NCBI GenBank assembly: GCA_037379345.1
Contig: CM074518.1
Span: 29,202,001-29,266,000 of the forward strand
Direction: 5' to 3'
DNA from: Perna viridis
Lineage: Eukaryota
Length of the DNA: 64,000 nt
Positions 32,265-61,309 of the stretch are shown here, one piece after another. Every line of letters begins with the position of its first letter. Position 1 is the first letter of the stretch. The notes beneath the pieces were generated by a model. It searched no databases and was not told the DNA's origin. It was given only the letters and a program-made list of their open reading frames with translations. The position numbers and the translations under genes are program-made.

Positions 32265-32915
32265 ATGAATGAGCTTAGTTTAACCGCTGTGTTGTTTTGG
32301 CTAGGAAATGTGCTAAAAATAGGCTCTTCAACGCCGAAAATCGGCATCGAGTGTGAACCGCACGGAAATTCACAGACTTGGAAATGTTCATGTAACAAGA
32401 AAGGTCTCGGATTTTACGTTGATAATTTACCAGGAATGATGTTAGTTTGTAGTAGTGATCTCAACCTCGAGTTTATCAAAATCCCGTCCATTCCAGTGAT
32501 ACAGGAAACCAAGTCGGTAAGCGGCGTATCCAGAAGTGATAGCGCAGTAATCAAAAAGACAAAAAGTGGACCACCGGCTCCGAGGCCAACCTCACATTCC
32601 GCTCAATCAAAGGTCTACAATGATCACGAATCAAATGTTGAGGGTACTAATGTCAATGATGTTCGCCACATAATGGAAACAACACCAAACATTTTGTTCC
32701 CGATGCACCACAAAAAGTATGGCTATGCTAGCGAAATTGCACGGGAATCCATGCACTGTCTCGTTTTTGATAGAGACCTAAAACCGGGCGAAACGATGAG
32801 GGTTAGAGGATGCACATACATTTGTGACAAGGGTGTATTTAGAAAACGCGACTGTAATAGCAGAAAAACTGAAATACTTCTTACTGGAACGAAAGGAAAA
32901 TTTCGTGGAAAATAA
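32265..32915 (+). CDS. Uncharacterised secreted Cys-rich protein, 216 aa, single coding exon: N-terminal 4-Cys module, Ser/Pro/Lys linker, C-terminal FN1/VWC-like 4-Cys module
   Basis: ATG-initiated ORF with a hydrophobic N-terminus (LSLTAVLFWLGNVL) and 8 Cys in two clusters. Both clusters align with modules in the 43006-44829 ORF. AATAAA overlaps the stop and recurs downstream. Confidence 0.82.
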   Translation: MNELSLTAVLFWLGNVLKIGSSTPKIGIECEPHGNSQTWKCSCNKKGLGFYVDNLPGMMLVCSSDLNLEFIKIPSIPVIQETKSVSGVSRSDSAVIKKTKSGPPAPRPTSHSAQSKVYNDHESNVEGTNVNDVRHIMETTPNILFPMHHKKYGYASEIARESMHCLVFDRDLKPGETMRVRGCTYICDKGVFRKRDCNSRKTEILLTGTKGKFRGK

Positions 32916-33330
32916 AATGAAACAATCTCATGACTCACGAAAGATGAAAAATAAATGTGTCGGACTTTCAACGATTCATACCAGTTATTGTTTGTGTTGA
33001 AACAAAAAAATCCGGCTTAAAGCCGAATATACTCAGTGCCAAATATCTCTACTTGTGATTACATGTATACAGCATAAAGTGTAGTATGTGTGAAAAAAAA
33101 CCCTAAAGGAATTGTGAAATTTTATTATAAAAAGTTCAATGGAACAAAAGGAGAATAAATAGATTAATAAATAAATAATAAGAAAAAAAGATCTAAAACT
33201 GTCTAAATCCAACGTGGGGCATTACAGTCAACTAAGCATATGAGTGGCTAGTCAAATTCATCAGCAAAGGCGTTCATTTTGTGTCACGTGACAAATGGCG
33301 GGAAATTGCTTATCTGGTATGCAAAAGAGG

Positions 33331-36300
33331 TTATGAGGCAAGTGTTCCAACTCCGAAACCATGGGGACCAAAGTTCTTAGCATAGCAACCTGTAAATAAG
33401 AAATAATAGTATTTATTTTTTAGTTCTTGATTATTCAAGGAGAGAAATGTGCAACTGATAATGTGGTTTGTCTGTATGTAGACGTTTTCGTCTCTCTATT
33501 TATTAATGAATTCACATGTATTTTTTCCATTTTCACATCAGTCTTCATTCGTTTTTTTTTGCTTCAACGTTATGATTGCTTTATCTTTGTTGTTACAGTT
33601 TAATCATCAAATTATTGTACTAAATTATGCTTTCAAGTATTTTACTTGCACGATAGGTGCCTAAACAATAAAATGAATTATTTTTATTGAGCTTTTGTGA
33701 TATTATTACTTTGTCTTATTACTTACAGGAATCTGGTTGTCAGTTGGCTCTTGATGTGCGCATTCAGTTATGAGTTAACAAGTCCAGTGGCTGGCCCATT
33801 TGTGAAATTTTTGAGTTGTTTTGTTTTCATAGAATGTCACGGATGTCGATATGAGCAAAGTCTTCTTAATCTGGTATTTGAACTTGTAGAAACTTGTGAA
33901 GGTTTCAGAAGAAAAGTTCTATGACAAATTTAGAACAGTTCTCGGACATCCTAGAGTCAGCTCTTCTGACAGTTCTAGCAGAGCCGGCTCTAGTAGAAGA
34001 ACTGTTCTGGTAGATAGCCCTGCCAGAACTATCAGAAGAGCTGGCTTTAGTAGTAAAATTGTTATCGTAGAGCCTGCCCTGCCCGAACTGTCAGAAGAGA
34101 TGGCTTTAGTAGTAGAGCTGGCTCTAGAACCGTTCCCCTGAGAAGTTGGACATGATCTCATCTGTAGCATGGTGGAATCTATTGATTTTTTTCTCTGCAT
34201 ACTTGTAGAGTTGGTGCTTACTTTTTATGGCGGCATTTAAACAATGTGCATACTTGTAAGTATGAAGGTGGTGTGTTACTTTTCATGGCCAGTATACGAG
34301 TGCAGAGAAATGCTTACCTTTACAATATATTTCTATCTCGTGTCTACATAAAGTGGTGGAATCTACAGCCTTATTACACTCCTTACATTTACAGCAAGAC
34401 TTGTGCCAGGCCTATGGTAGAATACAAACATATCATAAAACAACAACTTACAACAAAAAATGAAACAATGAAAATCAATAATTGTATTTGATTACATGTT
34501 TGAATGTTGCGTTCGAATTTCAAAGAATTTGTACTTTTTAGAGTTTTTTTTTATTCTAAGATTTAAAACTTTTTACGGTGGTACTGCTTAAACTTCTCTA
34601 TTGACACCGTGTGTTACGGGAGCACATACAGGTTCAATCTTCAAAGTCAGGGTTTTGAGAACAAACGAAGCGAAAATGGATGAGAATCCCGACTTGGGAG
34701 GATGAATTAGCAAACCAATTTTCAATTTCACTCATGCTATATTCTAGCAAAATCAAGATAAAATGAAGAAAAATAAGAAAATTTAAGTAAATTTACAGTT
34801 CGACGCATCATCTTGAATTTTCAACTTATAAATTTGAATTTATAAGTTCATATGTCAAATTTTCAAGAATTGTTTTAAATGGATGATAAGGCTTTTGTAG
34901 CATATTACTGACAGGGATATTTTGGGGGGTTAACTTCTTCCATACACCAACAAGCAAAATGCCATGAGTATTTCGCACGGACTTTTCTTTACGCTGATGA
35001 CGCCTGTCGTTCCATCTAACCATTGCACCTAGTCCAAGAAAAATCAAGGGAACCAAGATTCGAGCGGTAATCAAATAATTGTATCTGATTACATGTTTGA
35101 ATGTTTGAAAAGAGTATATCCCAAGGAAAATAACTAGATAGGGAAATTAGACGCATACACACCAAAGAAATTATAATAATCAAAACAGCACGTATAAAGA
35201 AGCAACCCGGACTCCACTAACAACTGGGAGCAAGAATCAGGTTCATCGGTAATGTAAGGGTCCTCTGCTTTTCTAAGCTACAAAATCGCTTAGGGCAAGT
35301 TGCTTTTTTTATTTAAGTTTTCTTTGCACTATTTTACGATGCTATATATTTTACATACACAGTGAAATCGGTCCCATTTAATCCTTGACCACAATGTTTT
35401 CAAAAGCGATCCGCGGTCTGAATTAATTGATTGCACTTTTCATTGTGTAAACTAGTAAGACACGAGATCTCTTAATTAATGAAAACATGTGTCAAAGGTA
35501 TTCGTTGAAGATATGTGCACATGCGTTTTTCTGAAAAGTAATAAAAATTCATTAGTTTAACTTTCTATAGACCTACATCAGTAAGACCAATAGCTCTCTC
35601 TGCTTCATAAACAGTCCTACCACATCTAGGGCAATGCGGACCTGGCCCGGAACTTGATGGTCCGACATGGGTCTCTGTGGGACGGTTGCTGAAAGTAGAT
35701 TTTTAATACAATGACCGAATTCTTGGTTTATAAGATAGCGTACCGTCCTCGTATTTCCGATTTTATCAATTTGCTATTTTAGCCGGATAGAATTTCTCAT
35801 ATCGTTTTGATATGCGTTGATAACTTATATATTTCGATAAGAGCTTACATGTAGTATGGTAACTTAACTCTGCAAGGCAATGAAAAAAAAATCACGAATT
35901 ACGTCATTTTTAGAGGTAAGTAAAATGATTACATACCAAAGTCTTTCGATACCGTAACGGAAGATTGTTCACTTATCTTCCTTTACTGAAATTACCGCAT
36001 TTCATGCTTGCACGTTAATGTTGCACTATACAGATGGGATTGCGGTGCACTGTTTCATACACAAAACTGAAGATGAAACTCGTTGGAAATAATGATTGTG
36101 GGTAGTAGATCGTTCGTGCATAAATAGATGCAATACTTGTGAAGGTAAAGAAGTGTAAACTGCATGTTTAAGCTACCCGGAACGATTCAGGTCCTCCCCG
36201 GATTGGGTTCTCATCCCTGCACCAACTGGCTGTTTTTCAGAAATGCAAAATTTCGCACGAACTTTAAGATTAAAATCATGAACAAATGAGCAGAAAAAGT

Positions 36301-37578
36301 ACACTTTTTATTTGTTTTTTTTACGATAATACCATACCTGCTTGCTTTTTTCTGGCGGTTTTAAAGTGCCTGATATTATAGAAAACCTGTTTTTGACAGT
36401 TAATTTTGCGAAGGCACCCAAAATTTGTTTTGAAAACTGACATCTATTTTTGTATTATTTTACCATGGCTACAGATTTTCATGATAAAATAGAAAATAAT
36501 ATCTATCTATTCGTGGACCTCCATAATGTAAGGTTTAGAAAAATATATACTTTTTTACAGGAATAAATTGTTGGATTTGCTTGCTTAAGTGTCTCAATTT
36601 AACTTTATTTCCACAAATTGTCAAAAAGGTATCTGCAGCTACCTATCTGTAAAGTGGAACCTAAAGGTTGGAATTCAGCTTCAAAGTCTCTATACCCTTT
36701 CAGAAGATACCAAGTATGAAGATGTTCAGTAAACACATCCAGCATTGCACTCGGTCTTCCAACATTATTTTTATTATAAATTAATGTGCAGCTAAAATGA
36801 AAACTTACGACATTTCAGCTTCCTTGTTTCCGAACTGGGCACCAGTTTCCATACTAAGAGCTCCAGCTCCTTGTCCGAAACCATATCCCTTAGGACCGAA
36901 CTTTTTACCATGGCAACCTTTGCAGAAGACACGCCCCTCGTGCTCGGCTACTGTTGTGCTTTCCAACATCTTGTTGCACATGCCTGTAAAGTAAACTAAA
37001 CCTGAAACTTTTTGGAAACTAGAAACTAGAAATTGTGAGATTAGAGGAAATAAGATGCGCCATAGTTCCATTGTAATGTTTACTAAACAATTCGGATACA
37101 TTCTGCTATACCATTGTCCGTCCTCATGTCTACGCGGCGTACGATAAATCAACGCTTTGAAAGATTTTAATGAATTTTAGCTCAAAGCTTTTCGTGATGT
37201 TTAAGTTTAGAAGCAACCTATCGTTTTAATTATTTTATAAACTTTTGTTTTAAAGTTTTCTGACTTGAAATTTCGCGGGCGCATTGTGTCCTTTAGCACA
37301 AATTTTATTAAAACATTAATCATTAACGAATCAGGAATTTATACTGTATATATTTTATTTCGAGTGTGGTAGTATAGAGATTCTATTTTGTCATAGAAAA
37401 GTGAAAAACATAAGGCAGTGATATCACGATTTGTAAAGTTACGACGTAGGTGCTTTTACATACCACACTTAAAGCACATTTTGTGCCATTTCTTGCCAGC
37501 TCCTAACTTCTCCTCGGCAGCATATACTGCTTTACCACAAGCCGGGCAGATAGACCTTTCTGGAGGCTTGAAAGGCAT
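33331..37578 (-). CDS. CSRP: Cysteine- and glycine-rich protein / muscle LIM protein (CSRP/MLP family, two LIM domains), 184 aa. Exons 37578-37464, 36983-36809, 35688-35577, 34411-34318, 33389-33331
   Basis: LIM1: [23 protein letters not shown]...WHKMCFKC, then [23 protein letters not shown] (Gly-rich repeat). LIM2: [12 protein letters not shown]...[11 protein letters not shown]...[17 protein letters not shown] splice acceptor 4 nt before the ATG implies an upstream non-coding exon. Confidence 0.95.
33945..34135. repeat. Composite direct and inverted repeat in the last CSRP intron
   Basis: GCTCTTCTGACAGTTCTAGCAG is inverted against CTGCCAGAACTATCAGAAGAGC and CTGCCCGAACTGTCAGAAGAG; GGCTYTAGTAG recurs. 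Confidence 0.7.
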
Positions 37579-38068
37579 AGTTCTGAAAAAAGAAAATGTC
37601 GTTCAATTAAAGGGAATGAATAGAATGTTTGAAAACATAATTTGAAGAAATAACTACTAAGTAATCGAGTAGTGTACCAATTCAACTTTAATAAGATAAC
37701 TACTAATGGAGTGGGCGTTCGGATCTGATATGATGATACCTTTAGATACAATGTCGTATGTTCTGATCAGCATCCTGTTGTAGTATGTAGATATTGATAA
37801 ATGCCATACATATATACATATATGAATGGGTGTCAGTTTTTCATTGTCTGAATATATGAATGGGGTGGGTACAATTTTTTGGGGGCCGCACACCCGTAAC
37901 CTTTTACCTGTTAAGTTACCTCCCTCGTGGCCATTTGATCCGCAAGTCGGAAAGAATGCAAGAAGAGTTGGATCACTGAAAAAGCGACTTGGTCACTTTG
38001 TTTTTGTTTTGATGCTATATCGCGGAAACCATTGATATAGCACATTAGTTTAAACGTTTGTTGTTCAA

Positions 38069-38644
38069 TACGGGGCGCCGAATGGGACTCTGTGGTTTTG
38101 TACTCAAAATTCAATTTTGTACAGACAAAAGTGAATTTTGTTCAACATGCAGAAATGAGTTCAAATTAACAAAATTTATAACATACTACAAATTTAAATT
38201 TTGTGTAACTTTTGTCATGATAAAATTCCTTTTTGTATCACATACTTGTTACCTAATTTGATTATTGGGTAACAAAAGTCAATTTTATATGCAAATGAGT
38301 TTAGTTTGGATTCTGCGAATTTATTTGCATACAAAACCGAGAAAAATTATGATAAAATTAAATTTTGTCACAAAATTCATATTTGTGTTCACAAAATTGA
38401 ATTCTGTAATAACAAAATCACTTTTGCAAGCAATTTAACTCAGAATTCTCTTTTGTGTCACAAAAATTGAATTTTGTCATGACTAAAATGAATTTTGCAA
38501 TTACAAAATTGAAGTGATCACAAAACAAGTTGGTATAATATTGTTTTGTACGACAAAAGTGCTTTTGTTATTACGGAATTCAATTTTGTGTACACCAAAT
38601 TAATTTTGATTACAAAAAGATCAAGTCCCATTCGGCGTCCCGTA
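38069..38644. mobile_element. MITE with ~21-bp TIRs and internal ACAAAATT/AATTTTGT repeats
   Basis: TACGGGGCGCCGAATGGGACT ... AGTCCCATTCGGCGTCCCGTA. Confidence 0.85.
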
Positions 38645-39346
38645 TGCAACATGTATAGATGTCCGTCTGTATATAGCGTATGAAGTGTGGTAAAGGAAAA
38701 AAAGCAAGCTTTTAGAAATTCATGAATCTATAAATCATAATGTTAAGTTAGTTGTGTATTAATATAGCCGTTGGTATATCTTTAGTTCAAACAATACCTG
38801 AACTACCAAGTTACAGAAATAGTTAAGTAATTAAACACAAAGAATGATTCAGAAACCAGGTAAAACGGCATTTAACACACATCAGAGTAAGCAGTACTAA
38901 TTAACGCAGTGCAAAAAGAGATCTTTACTTGGCAGCCTGCTCGAGGAAGTTTTTCTTCGTCAATTTCACCTTGAGGGATATATTGCTATGACTCACAAAA
39001 GATTTATCACTTAAATTATGTTTATATTGTAGAAGGCACATTCCTTAACACATAAACAATATACCATGGGAAAGTGTTTCATATGACTAACAAATATGAT
39101 ATACAACATGTAGGCTGAGTTCTTTGAACTATGGAGAAATTGAGAAGAATTGTGTTATGTAAAGTTGGGGGTGATGTTTTTTGAACGTGAAAGGAAGATT
39201 CTAATGAAAGGGTGTGTTACCAATCTTAACCTTTATTGACACAAGTTTTACAGTGAAATTCTGAAGAAGGGGAAGATGCATTGGTTGATTATTTCATTGC
39301 TCGAAGTTTTGCGTTTTTTTCTTAAGTATTTTACCTGGCAGATCGT

Positions 39347-39415
39347 ACCCCGATATAATAACTTATTTCAGGACCATTTAGACAATGGTCCTGAAATAAG
39401 TTATTGATTCGGGGT
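39347..39415. repeat. Hairpin with a 22-bp perfect stem and 5-nt loop, extendable
   Basis: AATAACTTATTTCAGGACCATT-TAGAC-AATGGTCCTGAAATAAGTTATT, flanked by ACCCCGA / TCGGGGT. Confidence 0.85.
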
Positions 39416-40604
39416 CTAGGAATGGAACCTCTCCCTTTTTATAGGAAATGTTTGTGCAAATTTGGACAAAATGAGCAAATGATAGATTGTAACCCCCTTT
39501 TTTCTCGATTTATATACAATGTGTAAAACAGGCTTATATTTATTACATTATGGTCCAAAAAAAGGGAAATGCTAAAAATTTCACACCCCAGCATATACTC
39601 CTTGGTCCATTTAAGCAAGTGAAATCCGAAATATTAATTGAATTTTTGTATTTCTCTCCTAGCTAAGTGTTCTTTAATTACCAGTTAATTAATGACCAAT
39701 ACATGTAGACATAATGCAGTTGTTGAACTGACTTGTGCCAGGTCATATGAGGTTACATCCCAGAATAAATAAACAACCAAAGACAAAACACTCCTTGTCC
39801 AAACATTACTCAGAACATAAGGAAGTGTTCATTATCAGATTATCTACATTATAACATCTACCGGGCAATGGCCAGCGTAAGTAATTTATTAAGAATGCTA
39901 ACAGTTGTTGACCGGGGCCAAAGACGTACATGTATAACATTACTGTAAGACCGTTAAAACAGACACAGCCAAGTAAAAACAAGTCTTTATTCATTTCCCG
40001 GTTTTTTTCTCAACATTAGTAAACCGAAATCAGATAATGTTGTGAGACTTCGAAGTATTGCATGAATGAAGTATTTCTGTATTTACAGAAAGTGAAGACA
40101 TTTTAATTAACGCTATAGACCTATTTCCTTCACTGTGATTCTGTTTCTTACAAACGATGTGCAATATCTGTAGTTATAAAGTCGTGTAGGGAACTATCGT
40201 TTGAATTTACGAAGTGGGTAGGATGAATTTTGAAATTATGTCAGGACAGCTAAGAAAAATTAAAAAGTCTGGATCTATATAATTGTCCTGAAATTTTTTG
40301 TTTATATTCAATTAAAAGAAAAAGACAGTCCTGACCTACACTTTCTCAAAATAAACAGGATAGAAAATTTCATCCAAGCCCCATAAAAACCAAAGGTTTG
40401 CTCTCTCATATGATGGAAAATATTGAAATGCTTATATTCAATAAGTAGAAATATTAATGTGTCTTTCCAATTACTGTAATTCTCTTGCATTTTGTTATAT
40501 CTCTCGAAAATTGACAGATTTTTTTTGTATAGTTACATATTGTAGTTAATCGTTATATGTACTTAACATAAAATTAGATTGTCAATGAACACTAACTTAC
40601 CTTA

Positions 40605-41003
40605 GAGCAACTACAATCCGACTTGGAGGATGGAATTCTTTGCACACGATACAAGCAAAACTGAACCATACCCTCTCTATTTTTGTCCAAAGTTTTATAT
40701 TGCAATTTTGCGCACATCACTCAAAGACCTTTCTTCACAGGGGTTACTGCCTGATATACTGCGGTGAAAGCTTGAAATCTGCGCCTGGAGCAAAATGAAA
40801 AATAGTGAAAGATGCATAAGTCCAGTGTTGGAAGTAATAAGAGGGAGAACGGAATCAAAAATTGAACGGCAACTAAAATCCGACTGGGATAGTAGAATTC
40901 TTTGCACACGATACAAACAAAACTGAACTATAGTTTCAAGTTTGATATTGGAATTTTGCGCACACCACTCTAAGACCTGTCTTTACAGGGGTTACTGCCT
41001 GAT
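40605..41003. repeat. Local tandem duplication (~260-bp period) with a third partial copy near 41435-41550
   Basis: GAATTCTTTGCACACGATACAA and CAGGGGTTACTGCCTGATA each occur twice; CGGTGAAAGC..TCTGCGCCTG recurs at 41435. Confidence 0.8.
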
Positions 41004-42127
41004 AAATGAATCAGAGAATTTCCTGTTGAATTTATAGGACAGACTAAATTAATAACTCCTTTATATCAATTAAACAAAATATTTTAATACGTATTAAACT
41101 CTATAAGTATAATCATGCATGTGAAATTAAAATGCTTTATTGTACACTCCTTAGGGTGCCTCATCACAACTTCGGGTGGTAAACTAAATTCGACATAAAT
41201 GGATTCTGCTTCACGCCATACATTCGTATCTCATCATCAATCTCATCATCAACTACATAAAGAATCACTGTAATGTAAATTATATGATAAAATCGGTTCT
41301 GAGCAACCTTTATTAATTATAAACAATTATATAACAGTTGAAAGCAGTTGCCGAAAAATTATAATGAGATTAATGACCAAGTGCTTCCTCTGTGACTTTC
41401 AAGCTAAATCTTGTTATTACCAATTCAGAGCAGACGGTGAAAGCCTGAGATCTGCGCCTGAAGGAAAACCAAACATTTGTTATAGTGAAAGATAATCTAA
41501 AGTCCAGCGGTTAAATTAATAAGATGAAGAATGGAATCAAGAAATGAAGAACATTACTTAAAGGGCAGATGCAGACATTCATAAAAGGGAGGTAAAATCC
41601 AGAAGAAATGAAAAAAGGAGGTTCTAGGCTATAATTTGCCAACATTTCTGCATTATAGAAATAACCAAATTTTCTTACAAAAAGTAGTTCATCCCTCGCC
41701 CCCGCCTCTGAACTTGCATGTTTCAATGTACTAATGCGAATTAAATTGACCTATCACACAGCGATAGATGTTCTACTAGTCATTTTAACTTCACTTGTCT
41801 TGTAAAAGACCCAACTTTCTGGTCAACATTTTTTATTTGAAATTGGAACCTTTATTTTAATTATTTAAAATACATGCAGTTCCACTTGAATATTATCGTT
41901 AAAACACATCTTCCATCTATCATAAGTGTTCCTCCTCTTTAATCGGATATAAACCCCAGCCAGATGTTCGACTGGTGCAATTCGAGTATTTGTAGATATT
42001 GCTCGCAGTATTTCGAAGTAACTCTTCCTTATATTTTTTTCTGAACCCTAACTGTATTTATTCTTTTATATGATATATTTAGATTACAATAGATCTGTTT
42101 GTATGTGCATTATGGGTGTTTGTCAAA

Positions 42128-42450: not shown

Positions 42451-43005
42451 ATTCAGTATATATCGAATTGATTTAAATGTAGTTACAATCGCAGCTTCAT
42501 TGATTTCATTTCAAATGAAGCACACATTTCCACGTCTGGTCTTATTTTAAACATCGAGCGTCACCCGATTCATGAAAAAGCAGAAATATGACAATATCAT
42601 TTGATAATGATGTGGTCTATATATTGATAACCAATGATCCATTTGTAACATGTGGCTCAATTTCTCCCCATCCTAAGATTGTCTATTGTGAAGTGTTTTC
42701 ATAAAGAAATAAGTCAATAAGAAGAACATTTCCATTGAAGATCATCAGTACGCACTTAATATAGGAATATATTTTTGTTAAAAAGTAAACAGTCTGAGAT
42801 ATGCATCCGTAATTTTTCAATTCTGCGACGGCTTTTGATGAAAGATATTAGGTAATTGAGTTCAAAATTGAAAAGGATTTTTTTTTACAAAAAGTCAACC
42901 TCAGTTTTATTGCTATCTTATCACAATAAGATATAGAAATTGGAGTGCAAGCTATACGCAAGCTTTTTTTTTCTGATTGTGTCGGTTGTGTAAATGGATT
43001 AAAAC

Positions 43006-44829
43006 ATGATTATCAGAACTAAGTTGGTTTTACTTGTTTTTACAACGTGTTTTCTAGTGGCATACACAAGACCACGCAGCAGATACCATAGAAGACGCCG
43101 ACCTCATATACGACCAAAACGATCCCCGAATCTGCGTATACGATGTGGCGAAAGGATCGACTTTGACTGGCAGTGTTATTGCGATAGACCAAGCGTTTTA
43201 CTGACATTGAATAATGCCAAAGATGCTGCTGACGCTTATCTTATTTGCGGGATTGACCAAGAGTTGGTGATTTTAGCCAAGACTCCAAAATATACTCCTT
43301 TGCAATCTGGTTTGGGAAGAAACTATAATCGCTTTGTCAAACAAGAGCGTCCTAGAACAATTTTGAACAACAACAAGTATTATGGATCTTCTTCTCTCGG
43401 AATGGAAAGAAAAGGTGGGATTGGAAATATAGGAAAAGACTATAGAACGAATGACAACCCATTCGGCGAAGGAGATAATATAAATTATCGTCAGATTGAA
43501 TCAAATGGCATTGATCATGTGAGATCTAATGAAATTTCTTCAGAAAGAAGTGAAAATCTGGGTTCGAGTAGTTTTGAAAATCTGAAGAGTTATGTATCCG
43601 ACGATAGGCATGGAATGGGAACAAGTAACAACCGAATTCGTAATCCTTACATTCAAAATGGACAACTTCCACTTCCGTTTTCGAAACAGAAAAGATCTAT
43701 AAACCTTCAAACAGTTGAGATTCTTTGCAACCGAGACATCTATGAAAGATGGTACTGTTATTGTCAACAACAAAGTGTTGTGATAACATTACCCAGCTCA
43801 GATATCTACAGTCTTTCTTGTGAATCTGACCAAGTATTAACAGTGCGTACCAAGGTGTCATACTATCAACCAGCGCAATCACAGTTTGCTGGTAAAATTG
43901 GAGTCAATAATCCGCCATATCCTGCTAACCAAAAGAACAACATCTTAGATACAGAACACAGAAATCCTTTTGATTCCATCGAACAAAGTAAAATGAACCC
44001 CGGAAACAATGTGGGCAATAGTCATTTAGAAAAACCACAACCTCTGTCTCAGCATGCATCAGACGAAACACCAACAGACTACGACAACATGATATCACAA
44101 GAAAAATTAGATAACGATTTGCAGGAAGCTATGCTTCGTTTAAGGAAAACACCGGAAACAACACCTACGACTACGCGAACTACTAAATTTTTGTCAACTG
44201 CTTTCACGGAAAGAGGATTCAAATTTGGCGGGAAAATATATGGCCTTCTGCCCGAAACTTCAAAACATGAGTCAAATGCAGATGTGGCCCCACAATCAGA
44301 AAATATAGACACCAATCCAAATAATTATAACACTAATAAATCTCAAACCAATACAGAAAATGCAGATGTAAAGGACGATTCAAAGCATGAATATAGTATC
44401 AGCAGTAGCAACAATGATGGCGATAACAAAACTATATTACCATTGACAACCTATGTCAGCAAGAATACACGAGATAAGACAGTTGACACTAATGTAATTA
44501 AGAATAAAAATAATGATGAAGCATTGACCGGGATTAGTAGACAACAACAGAAACAAACCAACAACAGTGTCAGAATTTATCAGCAGAGACAAAGCGATTT
44601 GACGACGATGGAAATGGACTCTGCTAGCAATTCTACGACGACCAATAGAACAGATTTATCAACAGACAATGATACACAAAATAGTGATAATTTAAAGATT
44701 ATAGACAAAGCGCCATGTTCCTTTTACGGGAAAGACTTACAGATTGGAGAAGGTGCACCAATCAGTATTTCTTGTAAGATGGTTTGTAAAAAGAAAAACG
44801 TTCTTAGACGAGAATGTTTTGGAAAGTAA
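43006..44829 (+). CDS. Uncharacterised secreted modular precursor, 607 aa, single coding exon: signal peptide, Arg-rich peptide, two 4-Cys modules, Asn/Asp/Thr-rich low-complexity region, C-terminal FN1/VWC-like module
   Basis: 1.8-kb ORF with signal peptide MIIRTKLVLLVFTTCFLVAYT. RPKR and KQKR each precede a W-x-C-x-C module. Paralogous modules occur in 32265-32915. AATAAA follows the stop directly. Confidence 0.88.
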   Translation: MIIRTKLVLLVFTTCFLVAYTRPRSRYHRRRRPHIRPKRSPNLRIRCGERIDFDWQCYCDRPSVLLTLNNAKDAADAYLICGIDQELVILAKTPKYTPLQSGLGRNYNRFVKQERPRTILNNNKYYGSSSLGMERKGGIGNIGKDYRTNDNPFGEGDNINYRQIESNGIDHVRSNEISSERSENLGSSSFENLKSYVSDDRHGMGTSNNRIRNPYIQNGQLPLPFSKQKRSINLQTVEILCNRDIYERWYCYCQQQSVVITLPSSDIYSLSCESDQVLTVRTKVSYYQPAQSQFAGKIGVNNPPYPANQKNNILDTEHRNPFDSIEQSKMNPGNNVGNSHLEKPQPLSQHASDETPTDYDNMISQEKLDNDLQEAMLRLRKTPETTPTTTRTTKFLSTAFTERGFKFGGKIYGLLPETSKHESNADVAPQSENIDTNPNNYNTNKSQTNTENADVKDDSKHEYSISSSNNDGDNKTILPLTTYVSKNTRDKTVDTNVIKNKNNDEALTGISRQQQKQTNNSVRIYQQRQSDLTTMEMDSASNSTTTNRTDLSTDNDTQNSDNLKIIDKAPCSFYGKDLQIGEGAPISISCKMVCKKKNVLRRECFGK

Positions 44830-46847
44830 TAAATAAAATAATTTAATCGTGAATATTTTTCTTATATCACGTGACCTCGATTTTTTGCATGCTTTATAGT
44901 TTGCTTTCTTTCCGTCAAAGCTACTGACGATAAACAATTCATTTTTAGGAATGAGTAAGGGTCTTTATTTTTTTCTTTTTTAAAAGTGAATTCTTGGTTG
45001 AGAAAACAATTGTCATTCCTTATGATTCTCCCAAACAGACTCATAACCGCTTCCTGATTGACGACGTATTACTTCGCTGGGTTATATACTCTGCTTTACA
45101 GGATGTGAAAAAAAAAAACAAAGCATAAGCATTAAGACATTACAAATCAGAAAAAAAAACTGTTTCCGTTTTACTGTCCTTATATGCATAAAGTCTGAAT
45201 TTAGTACTGAGTACAACAGAGGTGTAAATCTTTGAAATAATCAATGTTCTCTCTGCACAGGAGATCGTGTTTATCTGAGGTTTCTTTATCTTTTCTTTTG
45301 TCTCTGATCACATTTACATTTAGTAATCTGTTTTTACCATCCATGGTTTCCTTTGTAACACATATTTCTGTTTTAAAGACCACACAGACAGATTTACCGT
45401 ATCACCACAGGAAGGCACTTTATGTTGTGTTAAGTAAAGATGCACATAAAAAAGCAGGACAAATAGTAACATTGACAAATAAACTTATTGCTGAAACGTC
45501 TCAACATAACTCAGAAAACATTTAAACATTTACTGGTGAATAAAGATATTGGGATTTTAGCAACTAAAGTTCCTTACGCAATCCTTCTCTTACATTTGCA
45601 GTCATAAATAACGTACTGTCACCTCGCAATTATTTTTTTTTGTTTCCTTGTTTCCAGAACGTTTTCTATAGATGTGTTACATTAATTTCATCCATAAAAT
45701 GTATAAAGAAACTGCCGGCTAAGCTGTGCTAAGAAAATCCCTGCTCAACCATTTCTGTCAAACGTGGAAAAGGGAGACACGGTACAAGTCTTCGTGCAAA
45801 AGGAATATACCAATTATCTAAGCAATCCCTCAAATATATGCTGAAAAATCTGTTTATAATTCCATTAGGTTACAGACCACCAATTCAACCAATGAGCATT
45901 TGGAACGTACGCAAAAATAGTCCTACGCAGAAATTACCCTTGTTCCTCATAGTGCTGTGAAAAAAGTTCTCATCTTATTTAAAAAATTTAAACAGTTTCT
46001 GAAAGGAAAAACATTTTTGTACATTTTATAGGTGCATTTTGCTTCTTGTGATGTGAAGCCTAATCTCCATAATGATTTTTAAATATACCCCTATCTTGTG
46101 AAAACACTGGGATTTCCCATGCTATTTATAGACCCTTCACTTCCGGTGACCAGTACTGCATTGCAAGTCTGCTAACCCCACATGCCATTCTGAGGATTGT
46201 GAGCTGACATATGTAGAATCATGCTGATATATAGTCCTCTGCAGGTTAAAGTTAAGGTAAAGTCCAGAGAAGCCATTGAATATTGTGAAATTAGCATAGA
46301 AGCCTATGGAAAGTGGAATTAGTGGTTTTTAGCCATTATACTTCACCTTAAAATTACGAAGTCATACAGTAAACAATATGTACAGCAGCAAGGAATCTGA
46401 TAAAAGGAGACATCATCTAACATTAGCAATATACAAAACATCTAAGCATTCCCTCCATTAGAAGCAAAGAAATCGATTACAAAAAGTGTAACGGACGGAC
46501 GAAAAAGGTGATTACAATAAAGCCCATATTCTCATGAGGTTAAGTATAATTTTCACTTACAATGATTGCTCACAGTTTTTGAACAGTTAGCAGTTTATAA
46601 TCTTCCCAAGCGGGTACGTAAAAGGAGAAGCATATTTCGCGTAAGTATCCGTGGAGCATATGACAATTATGCAGAATATGATATACTACCTAGTTCAGGA
46701 CGAAAAACCTGACTGTACTATAATACTACAATTGTAAAATTGTACAGTACTTGATCGTTTTCTGAATCAAATCTGGGTAATTTTATTTCGACTCTGACAA
46801 TTCATCATTTCGACACATTTTGAAATGGATTCTTTCGTCGACTATAT

Positions 46848-47130
46848 CTAAGTAGCAGTCTTTACAAAAATCAGACAGGAGGTGATTCATGGTTATAGAT
46901 TGTACACGAAATTGGAACTCTGCAAGAGTTATTGTTCTAACTTTGGTTTAATGTGGTTGATTTTAGTATGAGATAAATGTATGATTTTCTCAAAGTACAG
47001 AAATGAATATAGTTACACAAAAATATAGCATATGTAGATTGAAAAGTCGTCGTTTGTTCGGTGAGTTTTTCTTTACCATTAATCATATTGATTTGGGCAG
47101 TGCCTGAATTTTAAATGGACTGATACTTAA
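46848..47130. mobile_element. Second copy of the TTAA MITE family (internally deleted)
   Basis: Aligns with 4943-5342 (TCAGACAG.AGGTGATTCATG; TAGATTGTACA; GATAAATGTATGATTTTCT; GACTGATACTTAA). Confidence 0.75.
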
Positions 47131-60600: not shown

Positions 60601-60825
60601 AAAATTAATTAACCCGATTTGGACTAATGGTTCTGTTTGGAAGGAAACGCTTGATAGTGAAGTAAGTAGGGATGATATTTTGTGAGGGATGTACACGTTA
60701 GCGCTGAGAAATGCCAATGCACAGGAGTTTTCCAAAGTATTTGTGATTTCATCAGGGTAAAACTCTCTAAAAGCAAATGCCGTCTGTAGGAATAAACATG
60801 TAATGCATACAATATATGCTGTCAT
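54666..60825 (-). CDS. Signal peptide + redox-inactive thioredoxin/PDI-like domain + JmjC (cupin_8, JMJD7-like) 2-oxoglutarate oxygenase, 539 aa. Exons 60825-59614, 58894-58712, 55480-55338, 54747-54666
   Basis: JmjC motifs: KPVIIENAIENWPALIKWS, NIWFSDGNTLGKLHFDPFDNLLCQISGRKQVILF, GDVLFMPAFWWHEVQS, AVNYWY; the HxD...H metal triad is intact. GT-AG introns are in frame. AATAAA lies at 54659-54654, just after the stop. Confidence 0.9.
56987..57245 (+). mobile_element. SINE-like repeat in JmjC gene intron 2
   Basis: TGCGCCTGTCCAAGTCAGGAA and GGAGTTGTTGTCTCTTTGACATATAC segments; a reverse fragment of the latter occurs near 18987-19012. Confidence 0.45.
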
Positions 60826-61309
60826 CCCGGTAAAATCAATTATTTGTCTTTTCCACAAAATGAAAGTAAAACTTCATTGTTGATAAAAGGGGAGGTAACT
60901 CAAATTTTAAAAAGTAAAAGTCGTTTCGGAGAGGGATAATTTCCGGAAATTAATTTAATGAGAAGGCGATACAAATTTTCAAATAATCAATTACATTCAA
61001 ATTTCTGAATAGAAAAACAATTTTAAAAAATCTGGAAGAAACTCACATCGTTACTTTTATATAGAAAATTAACACCAGTAAGTTATTTTTATGGCATTCA
61101 CATTGTGTGACAAGACTGTGACACTATCCATGTTGCGCAATGAAATTATCAAAATTACAAACTACTACGAACATACTCAAAGGCAAGAAAAAATAAATAT
61201 AAAGCCTATAAACATTCCATATTGCAACAAAGAAAATCTTCACGATAAAGATCCAAAAAAAGTATTGGAGTTTAATAAACGAATTACAAGAAAAGACTAC
61301 TGCTAATGA

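Follow-up and report, generated by a model that had tools for sequence, protein, structure and literature searches.

The 64,000-nucleotide stretch of Perna viridis DNA analysed here (the window) contains an open reading frame of 607 amino acids, P0001, in which two cysteine modules each stand closely behind a cluster of basic residues. The question raised by this locus is whether these clusters are convertase sites and what kind of product would be released from them. A preliminary description had proposed separate disulfide-bonded products, as in neuropeptide or toxin precursors. From the sequence comparisons presented below, P0001 is a likely secreted proprotein that would be cut at both sites and would act in the extracellular matrix or a mucus layer, a reading that is held at about even confidence.

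Gene, transcripts and layout of P0001

The stretch is contained in 20 of the 24 runs listed. Four of these (X1, X6, X9 and X15) were examined, and their RNA or genome kind was judged from splicing. The CT..AC joints of the neighbouring minus-strand gene are spliced in X1, X6 and X9 and are absent in X15, which is genome-like. The depth in bins 39288-39951 and 41280-41943 is zero in X1, X6 and X9 versus about 50 in X15. On these two grounds X1, X6 and X9 were taken as RNA-like. The P0001 ORF appears unspliced in their contigs 42682-44852, 42695-44851 and 42701-44853; the run contigs carry neither strand, level nor tissue information. The P0001 gene is transcribed without introns in its ORF. Hidden introns were rejected because unspliced contigs span the ORF in all three RNA-like runs, and a chance ORF was also rejected.

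Two variants were recorded: a C>T change at 43809, at a third codon position, in the three RNA-like runs and a G>T change at 44521 in X15. Neither affects a site or a cysteine. Directly after the gene stands a high-copy repeat (45264-47255) with a depth in X15 of up to 617,000, compared with about 45 in single-copy bins.

The features of P0001 and the position of its paralog P0003 are collected in Table 1. The hydropathy scan gives a value of 2.65 at the N-terminus of P0001, and a similar N-terminus is found in the homologs. The two N-type modules follow the pattern C-x7/9-W-x-C-x-C-x18/21-C. Their local alignment has a score of 87, compared with a shuffle mean of 22, and this score is reached by 0/5000 shuffles; with the Cys and Trp residues fixed, the shuffle mean is 35 and 87 is again reached by 0/5000. 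By this alignment modules 1 and 2 are homologous. The IS(Q/E)EKLD motif of the long linker occurs in 7 of the 11 proteins checked, namely in every long-type protein except P0006 and in 0/3 of the short type.

Table 1. Positions of the P0001 features and of the paralog P0003 in the window
Feature	Positions	Strand	Remark
Single-exon ORF P0001, 607 aa	43006..44829	+	unspliced contigs at about 42682-44853 in 3/3 RNA-like runs
Likely signal peptide, aa 1 to about 19-21 (basic start, hydrophobic core)	43006..43068	+	by eye and hydropathy scan
Arg-rich propeptide, aa 22-39 (50% Arg), site 1 at its end	43069..43122	+	shorter in homologs
Site 1, RPKR (canonical R-x-K-R), predicted convertase site, aa 36-39	43111..43122	+	RPKR or RSKR in 5 further homologs
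Cys module 1, aa 40-95 (C47, W55, C57, C59, C81)	43123..43290	+	five beta strands predicted
Site 2, KQKR, aa 227-230; Lys at P4, non-canonical for furin	43684..43695	+	RRKR in P0002
Cys module 2, aa 231-286 (C241, W249, C251, C253, C272)	43696..43863	+	internal duplicate of module 1
Low-complexity linker rich in Asn, Thr, Ser and Asp, aa 290-565, with six N-x-S/T sequons	43873..44700	+	
IS(Q/E)EKLD..L motif in long linker, likely amphipathic helix	44092..44139	+	conserved in family
C-terminal 4-Cys module, aa 570-607 (Cys 571, 590, 594, 604)	44713..44826	+	alignment; fold from paralog's model
Short paralog P0003, 216 aa	32265..32915	+	independently found by search with homolog P0010, E 4.9e-7

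P0003 stands 10 kb upstream of P0001 and has a likely signal peptide, one Cys module without KR ahead of it, a short linker and a C-terminal 4-Cys module. Between the two genes lies a spliced two-LIM-domain gene on the minus strand (33192-40720), which from its translated exons we take to be of the CRP/muscle LIM protein type. Its exons are at 40601 and beyond, 37463-37582, 36809-36982, 35576-35688, 34316-34410 and to 33387, and the contig at its 3' side (32843-33391) reaches into the last part of the P0003 ORF. Two further minus-strand frames were noted in the window. The first (52834-53586) contains Cys, measures 183 aa from Met and has a likely signal peptide; no Pfam match and no protein-collection entry as translated were found for this ORF. 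The second (59554-60873) is a large exon that encodes a Cupin_8 (JmjC-like) domain (E 6.5e-25) as well as a likely signal peptide. Just right of the window, three plus-strand frames (L015 6105-9186) each encode a Cys-rich unit, about 35 aa long and similar among the three, with low-complexity sequence after it; no Pfam match was obtained, and they are likely exons of a repeat protein. Three similar exon-like frames within about 25 kb (L008 3-518, L010 6038-6469 on the minus strand and L010 8248-8847) form a local tandem family, and the one frame checked has no Pfam match.

Family members and conservation of the basic sites

A word-based protein search returned a single homolog, P0002, a protein of 736 aa that is 43% identical to P0001 in the best local alignment. 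When the three window modules were combined into a profile and compared with 1.84 billion representatives, 10 matches were obtained. Two of these, P0004 (a repeat protein) and P0008 (CD22-like), were rejected as false; both are without the W-x-C-x-C module. The other eight share the order of signal peptide, N-module or N-modules, low-complexity linker and C-terminal Cys module, with only part of the C-module cysteines retained in P0010. The C-module is present in every full-length member, often 300-500 aa from the N-module. A further search added P0053 and P0054; these two proteins and P0009 carry two copies of the C-terminal module and a single N-module, so that both ends of the family duplicate.

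Names exist only for members from Mytilus galloprovincialis and M. edulis, which are entered as hypothetical proteins (CAG2240968.1 and VDI78920.1/VDI78919.1). They belong to the same family, having the signal peptide, RPKR site, Cys module, IS(Q/E)EKLD motif and C-terminal module, and differ from P0001 in their single N-module; as a protein type they are unnamed. Single-protein searches of the P. viridis genome found just the P0001 and P0003 genes, which is a lower bound, and a broken C4 match (E 0.35). The flanks, 100 kb to either side of the window, yielded no other convincing copy; their best module match (E 0.0045, 27 positions) is in L010. None of the 107 pattern matches in metagenome contigs was confirmed. 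At the curated cut-off Pfam gave nothing for P0001, for its three modules alone or for 11 aligned members, and the PDB sequence search with P0001 gave one match, which is unrelated (E 0.15). P0001 belongs to an unnamed mussel family with an unclassified Cys module, and this family is the new element; the logic of a convertase-matured secreted proprotein is common.

The motifs RPKR↓SPNLRIRC (aa 36-47) and KQKR↓SINLQTVEILC (aa 227-241) of the preliminary description are both present in P0001. They hold its only two KR pairs, compared with 2.7 expected from shuffles, and stand 7 and 10 residues ahead of their 4-Cys modules. KR within 17 aa before both first cysteines is seen in 0.55% of 100,000 shuffles and [KR]x[KR]R within 19 aa in 0.035%, the two window sizes having been picked after the data were seen and the two sites sharing an origin. 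For these reasons conservation is the stronger test. The description of each Cys module as following a convertase site holds for modules 1 and 2 and fails for the third, C-terminal module, which has no KR or other basic site in front. The furin consensus R-x-K-R, similarly, applies to RPKR at site 1 and leaves KQKR at site 2 as a dibasic KR only. According to PMC3059051, Arg at P4 is often essential for furin, and substrates without it exist.

Sites were scored in 15 full-length proteins with 19 N-modules, out of 63 ids; the remainder comprised the two false matches and their clusters, fragments, and sequences that fall in the same 90% clusters, few of which were read. A site precedes 11 of the 13 modules of the nine long-type proteins, which amount to about four lineages and not to nine independent cases. 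KR is found 7-10 aa before the first Cys in nine of these modules, and RRKR 21 aa before it in two. The two long-type modules without a site are both first modules and closely follow the signal peptide. None of the six modules of the six short-type proteins, P0003 included, has a site between signal peptide and module; in P0010/P0046 KR stands ahead of the hydrophobic stretch. Since the short-type paralogs have no site, the N-module does not need one. Canonical R-x-K-R is found at 10/11 sites, the KQKR of P0001 being the sole exception, and ahead of the first modules of the P0001, P0005 and P0009 groups in 7/7 cases. Mytilus-type homologs have RPKR↓F and RSKR↓Y ahead of their single module. 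The P1' residue is Ser at 6/11 sites and Phe or Tyr at 5/11. S-x-N-L, described earlier as following K-R just before each module, was rejected as part of the signal, as it is found at just 2/11 sites, both in P0001.

These counts also bear on the possibility that the basic motifs belong to the module fold or to a binding surface and that the protein stays whole. The first strand of the modules starts only a few residues after the site, as seen in the model of module 1, which fits this possibility; the absence of the motif from 8/19 modules and its distance of 21 aa in two others place it outside the fold, and the element conserved is exactly the R-x-K-R pattern. Motifs of this structural kind are considered very unlikely.

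In the closest homolog, P0002, the two modules are preceded by RPKR↓S and RRKR↓S, respectively. Between P0001 and P0002, aa 33-40 are identical at 8/8 positions and the site 2 region at 3/5. Module 1 is identical at 45/55 residues (82%) and module 2 at 33/54 (61%); the linkers are 24-44% identical, with aa 381-565 at 24%. K-R-S at site 2 is retained in P0002 despite the diverged flanks. The KR sites are thus conserved in homologs, so that the refuting condition named earlier, a lack of such conservation, did not arise, and the claim that the basic site was duplicated together with the module is supported by the homology of the modules and by the presence of both sites in P0002. In a tree of the 19 modules the four modules of P0001 and P0002 are placed together (support 88/100), apart from those of P0006/P0020, which have RRKR between their two modules. 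The tree, in which long branches meet, suggests two separate N-module duplications, one in P0001/P0002 and one in P0006/P0020. Module 2 of P0001 has a long branch.

A second possibility is that only site 1 is used, for removal of the propeptide, and that site 2 is a by-product of the duplication that is cut poorly or not at all. The mature chain would then contain about 570 aa and two N-modules. The optimal RRKR at site 2 of P0002 is at odds with this possibility, and the direct test of site 2 rests on that one other sequence. In its favour, the P4 residue of KQKR is Lys and its P6 residue is not basic (compare PMC3059051), and the long branch of module 2 may reflect relaxed constraint; K-R-S is nevertheless kept between diverged flanks, and the apparently separate P0006/P0020 duplication also has RRKR between its modules. 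Use of site 1 alone is judged unlikely.

Predicted products

Cutting at both sites would divide P0001 into an 18-aa propeptide (50% Arg), a 191-aa chain (21.7 kDa, pI 9.0, 4 Cys, computed) and a 377-aa chain (42.5 kDa, pI 5.7, 8 Cys and six N-x-S/T, computed). The next KR/RR after module 1 is site 2 itself, 149 aa on, and there is none for 330 aa after module 2; the proposed likeness to a neuropeptide or toxin precursor is not borne out by this spacing. A check of 12 proteins over the 70 aa behind each module showed no mono- or dibasic site that is common to all long homologs. Two large chains of about 191 and 377 aa are predicted because no conserved site closes either module. The layout of the 377-aa chain equals that of the single-module Mytilus proteins, including the IS(Q/E)EKLD motif and the C-module.

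In the favoured reading of a proprotein cut at both sites, the signal peptide of P0001 would be removed by signal peptidase. The cut at RPKR, which is assigned with good confidence, would remove the Arg-rich propeptide and leave module 1 near a free N-terminus, as in the short-type paralogs after the signal peptide. The cut at KQKR would probably do likewise for module 2 and would restore the ancestral order of module, linker, helix motif and C-module. Each module would form its own disulfides, so that the chains would not be disulfide-linked. Every N-module of the family would end near a free N-terminus, by way of signal peptidase or of a furin-type convertase. This would hold for all 19 modules because those without a site (two long-type first modules and six short-type modules) closely follow the signal peptide.

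A third possibility is a peptide-type polyprotein, in which additional trimming of the modules would set free small mini-proteins for signalling or defence, disulfide-bonded and possibly amidated. The size of the module, about 55 aa with four Cys, is in the range of neuropeptide- or toxin-type mini-proteins, and a C-terminal Gly-Lys is a usual amidation signal. P0001 ends in Gly-Lys-stop (within 44818-44829), as do P0003 (within 32904-32915) and P0002; this ending may be an amidation signal, and it is absent from the other members read. No G-K/R-K/R amidation signal is present in P0001. In P0006/P0020, G-KRRKR appears 22-26 aa after module 1, where a cut would yield an amidated product about 60 aa long. 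Four of the seven long-type proteins of the P0001, P0005 and P0009 groups (P0001, P0002, P0005 and P0012) have an RK pair 53-60 aa past the first module; against its use, the pair is missing in P0009, P0053 and P0054, and acidic residues come next in three of the four. The 70 aa that follow module 2 of P0001 are free of mono- and dibasic sites, the distant C-module is always kept in full-length members, and the P0001 family has no Pfam match to any peptide family, all of which argue against small products. Release of the modules as peptides is regarded as improbable.

Neuropeptide precursors have basic sites on both sides of the peptide, as described in PMC5996578. By the criteria of the same source, molluscan neuropeptide precursors resemble P0001 in the signal peptide, which is likely in P0001, basic sites, cysteines and a possible amidation Gly; P0001 differs from them in having no conserved basic site C-terminal of its modules, predicted products of 191 and 377 aa and no family match. 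The basic sites N-terminal of both N-type modules are as in polyprotein precursors, and a basic site on the C-terminal side is found only at module 1 of P0006/P0020.

Predicted folds, precedents and significance

The model of module 1 (mean pLDDT 67) was obtained from an alignment of only three sequences, and a new fold is not supported on this basis. Foldseek gave nothing for module 1 at E <= 0.001, the best VIA match has Z 2.5, and the ESM Atlas gave no usable match; for P0012 the ESM Atlas lead is VWFC at 0.77, under 0.9. The P0003 model, built from 14 sequences, contains two small beta modules joined by a linker with pLDDT <50 (pTM 0.28). For its C-module Foldseek listed VWC entries of vWF, MUC2/5AC/5B and collagen-2A, with a best E of 0.54 and an rmsd of 1.3 A across 33 columns; the vWF and mucin rows have rmsd values of 1.1-1.7 A over about 30-34 residues. 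VIA listed fibronectin-I, the tPA finger and the factor XII FnI domain with Z 3.5-4.1. Pfam VWC2L_C appears at E 0.19 in 2/11 members, and the C-module alone has no Pfam match. From these non-significant matches of the paralog's model, the C-terminal module is predicted to be like fibronectin-I or a half VWC. The Foldseek and VIA results, though weak, are consistent among themselves and with the VWFC lead of the ESM Atlas. In common with FnI, half-VWC and vWF-mucin E modules, the C-module has four Cys, a G..L..GE pattern and a predicted small beta fold. The C-module differs in having only four Cys, C-x3-C in place of C-x-C and a single or double copy at the C-terminus, and the FnI/VWC assignment has no score at the curated cut-off. 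A full VWC has 10 Cys. A shared fold of the C-module shows no function. A complex prediction for the N- and C-modules of the paralog gave a score of 0.01 with the alignment unused, which is no evidence either way.

In the manner of matrix, shell, byssus or mucus proteins, a flexible and probably glycosylated spacer may carry the N-module and the FnI/VWC-like C-module as its two binding ends, an assignment for which the chances appear evenly balanced. A two-ended tethered protein fits because the C-module is kept in full-length members, often 300-500 aa from the N-module. The reading of a proprotein cut at both sites is favoured by the conservation of the sites, the RRKR kept in P0002, the predicted product sizes, the composition of the linker and the P0003 model. 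Against it are the absence of P4 Arg in KQKR and the fold matches, which are non-significant and were made on the paralog. Against the matrix role in particular, the Gly-Lys ends of P0001-P0003 and the G-KR of P0006/P0020 fit a regulated peptide pathway better.

A precedent is provided by the shell matrix. In Pinctada fucata, cleavage of Pif at RMKR gives two large chains, and BMSP of Mytilus galloprovincialis is likewise cut into two (PMC11291548; see also PMC4619886). The likeness lies in a secreted bivalve precursor giving two large chains, with a dibasic site in Pif and with cleavage predicted in P0001. Pif and BMSP have VWA, chitin-binding and laminin-G domains, none of which is detected by Pfam in P0001 or the 11 aligned members, and the P0001 site fronts a duplicated 55-aa Cys module. 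By analogy, P0001 likely works like Pif and BMSP and is not a member of their group.

No description of the family was found by accession, short motif or topic; subscription papers and bioRxiv supplements are mostly unsearchable, and a description may exist. The family motifs gave 0 matches in the mussel shell and byssus proteome supplements PMC6641155, PMC6508894, PMC4517812 and PMC5911496. This counts against the favoured reading, though by a weak test in which cells were limited to 400 characters and a species match was not established. A control motif of the neighbouring LIM gene was also absent there, and sequences were seen only in PMC6641155. The terms sought do not occur in the accessible text of PMC2119775.

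A bolder reading, considered quite improbable, is that of a new 55-aa disulfide module that would be active only at a free N-terminus, would have been duplicated twice with its convertase site and would be released as an amidated mini-protein in one lineage. The family would then represent a new class of convertase-activated secreted effectors that exist in both tethered and free form and serve as signals, in defence or as triggers of assembly.

The two-chain reading makes exact predictions, namely N-termini at Ser40 and Ser231 and chains of 22 and 43 kDa. The family offers a natural comparison set, as its members carry two sites, a single one or none, and the window itself contains two such members at a distance of 10 kb. 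If the proteins are matrix parts, they would be an addition to the biology of mussel shell, byssus or mucus; if the modules are released free and amidated, they would constitute a new peptide class.
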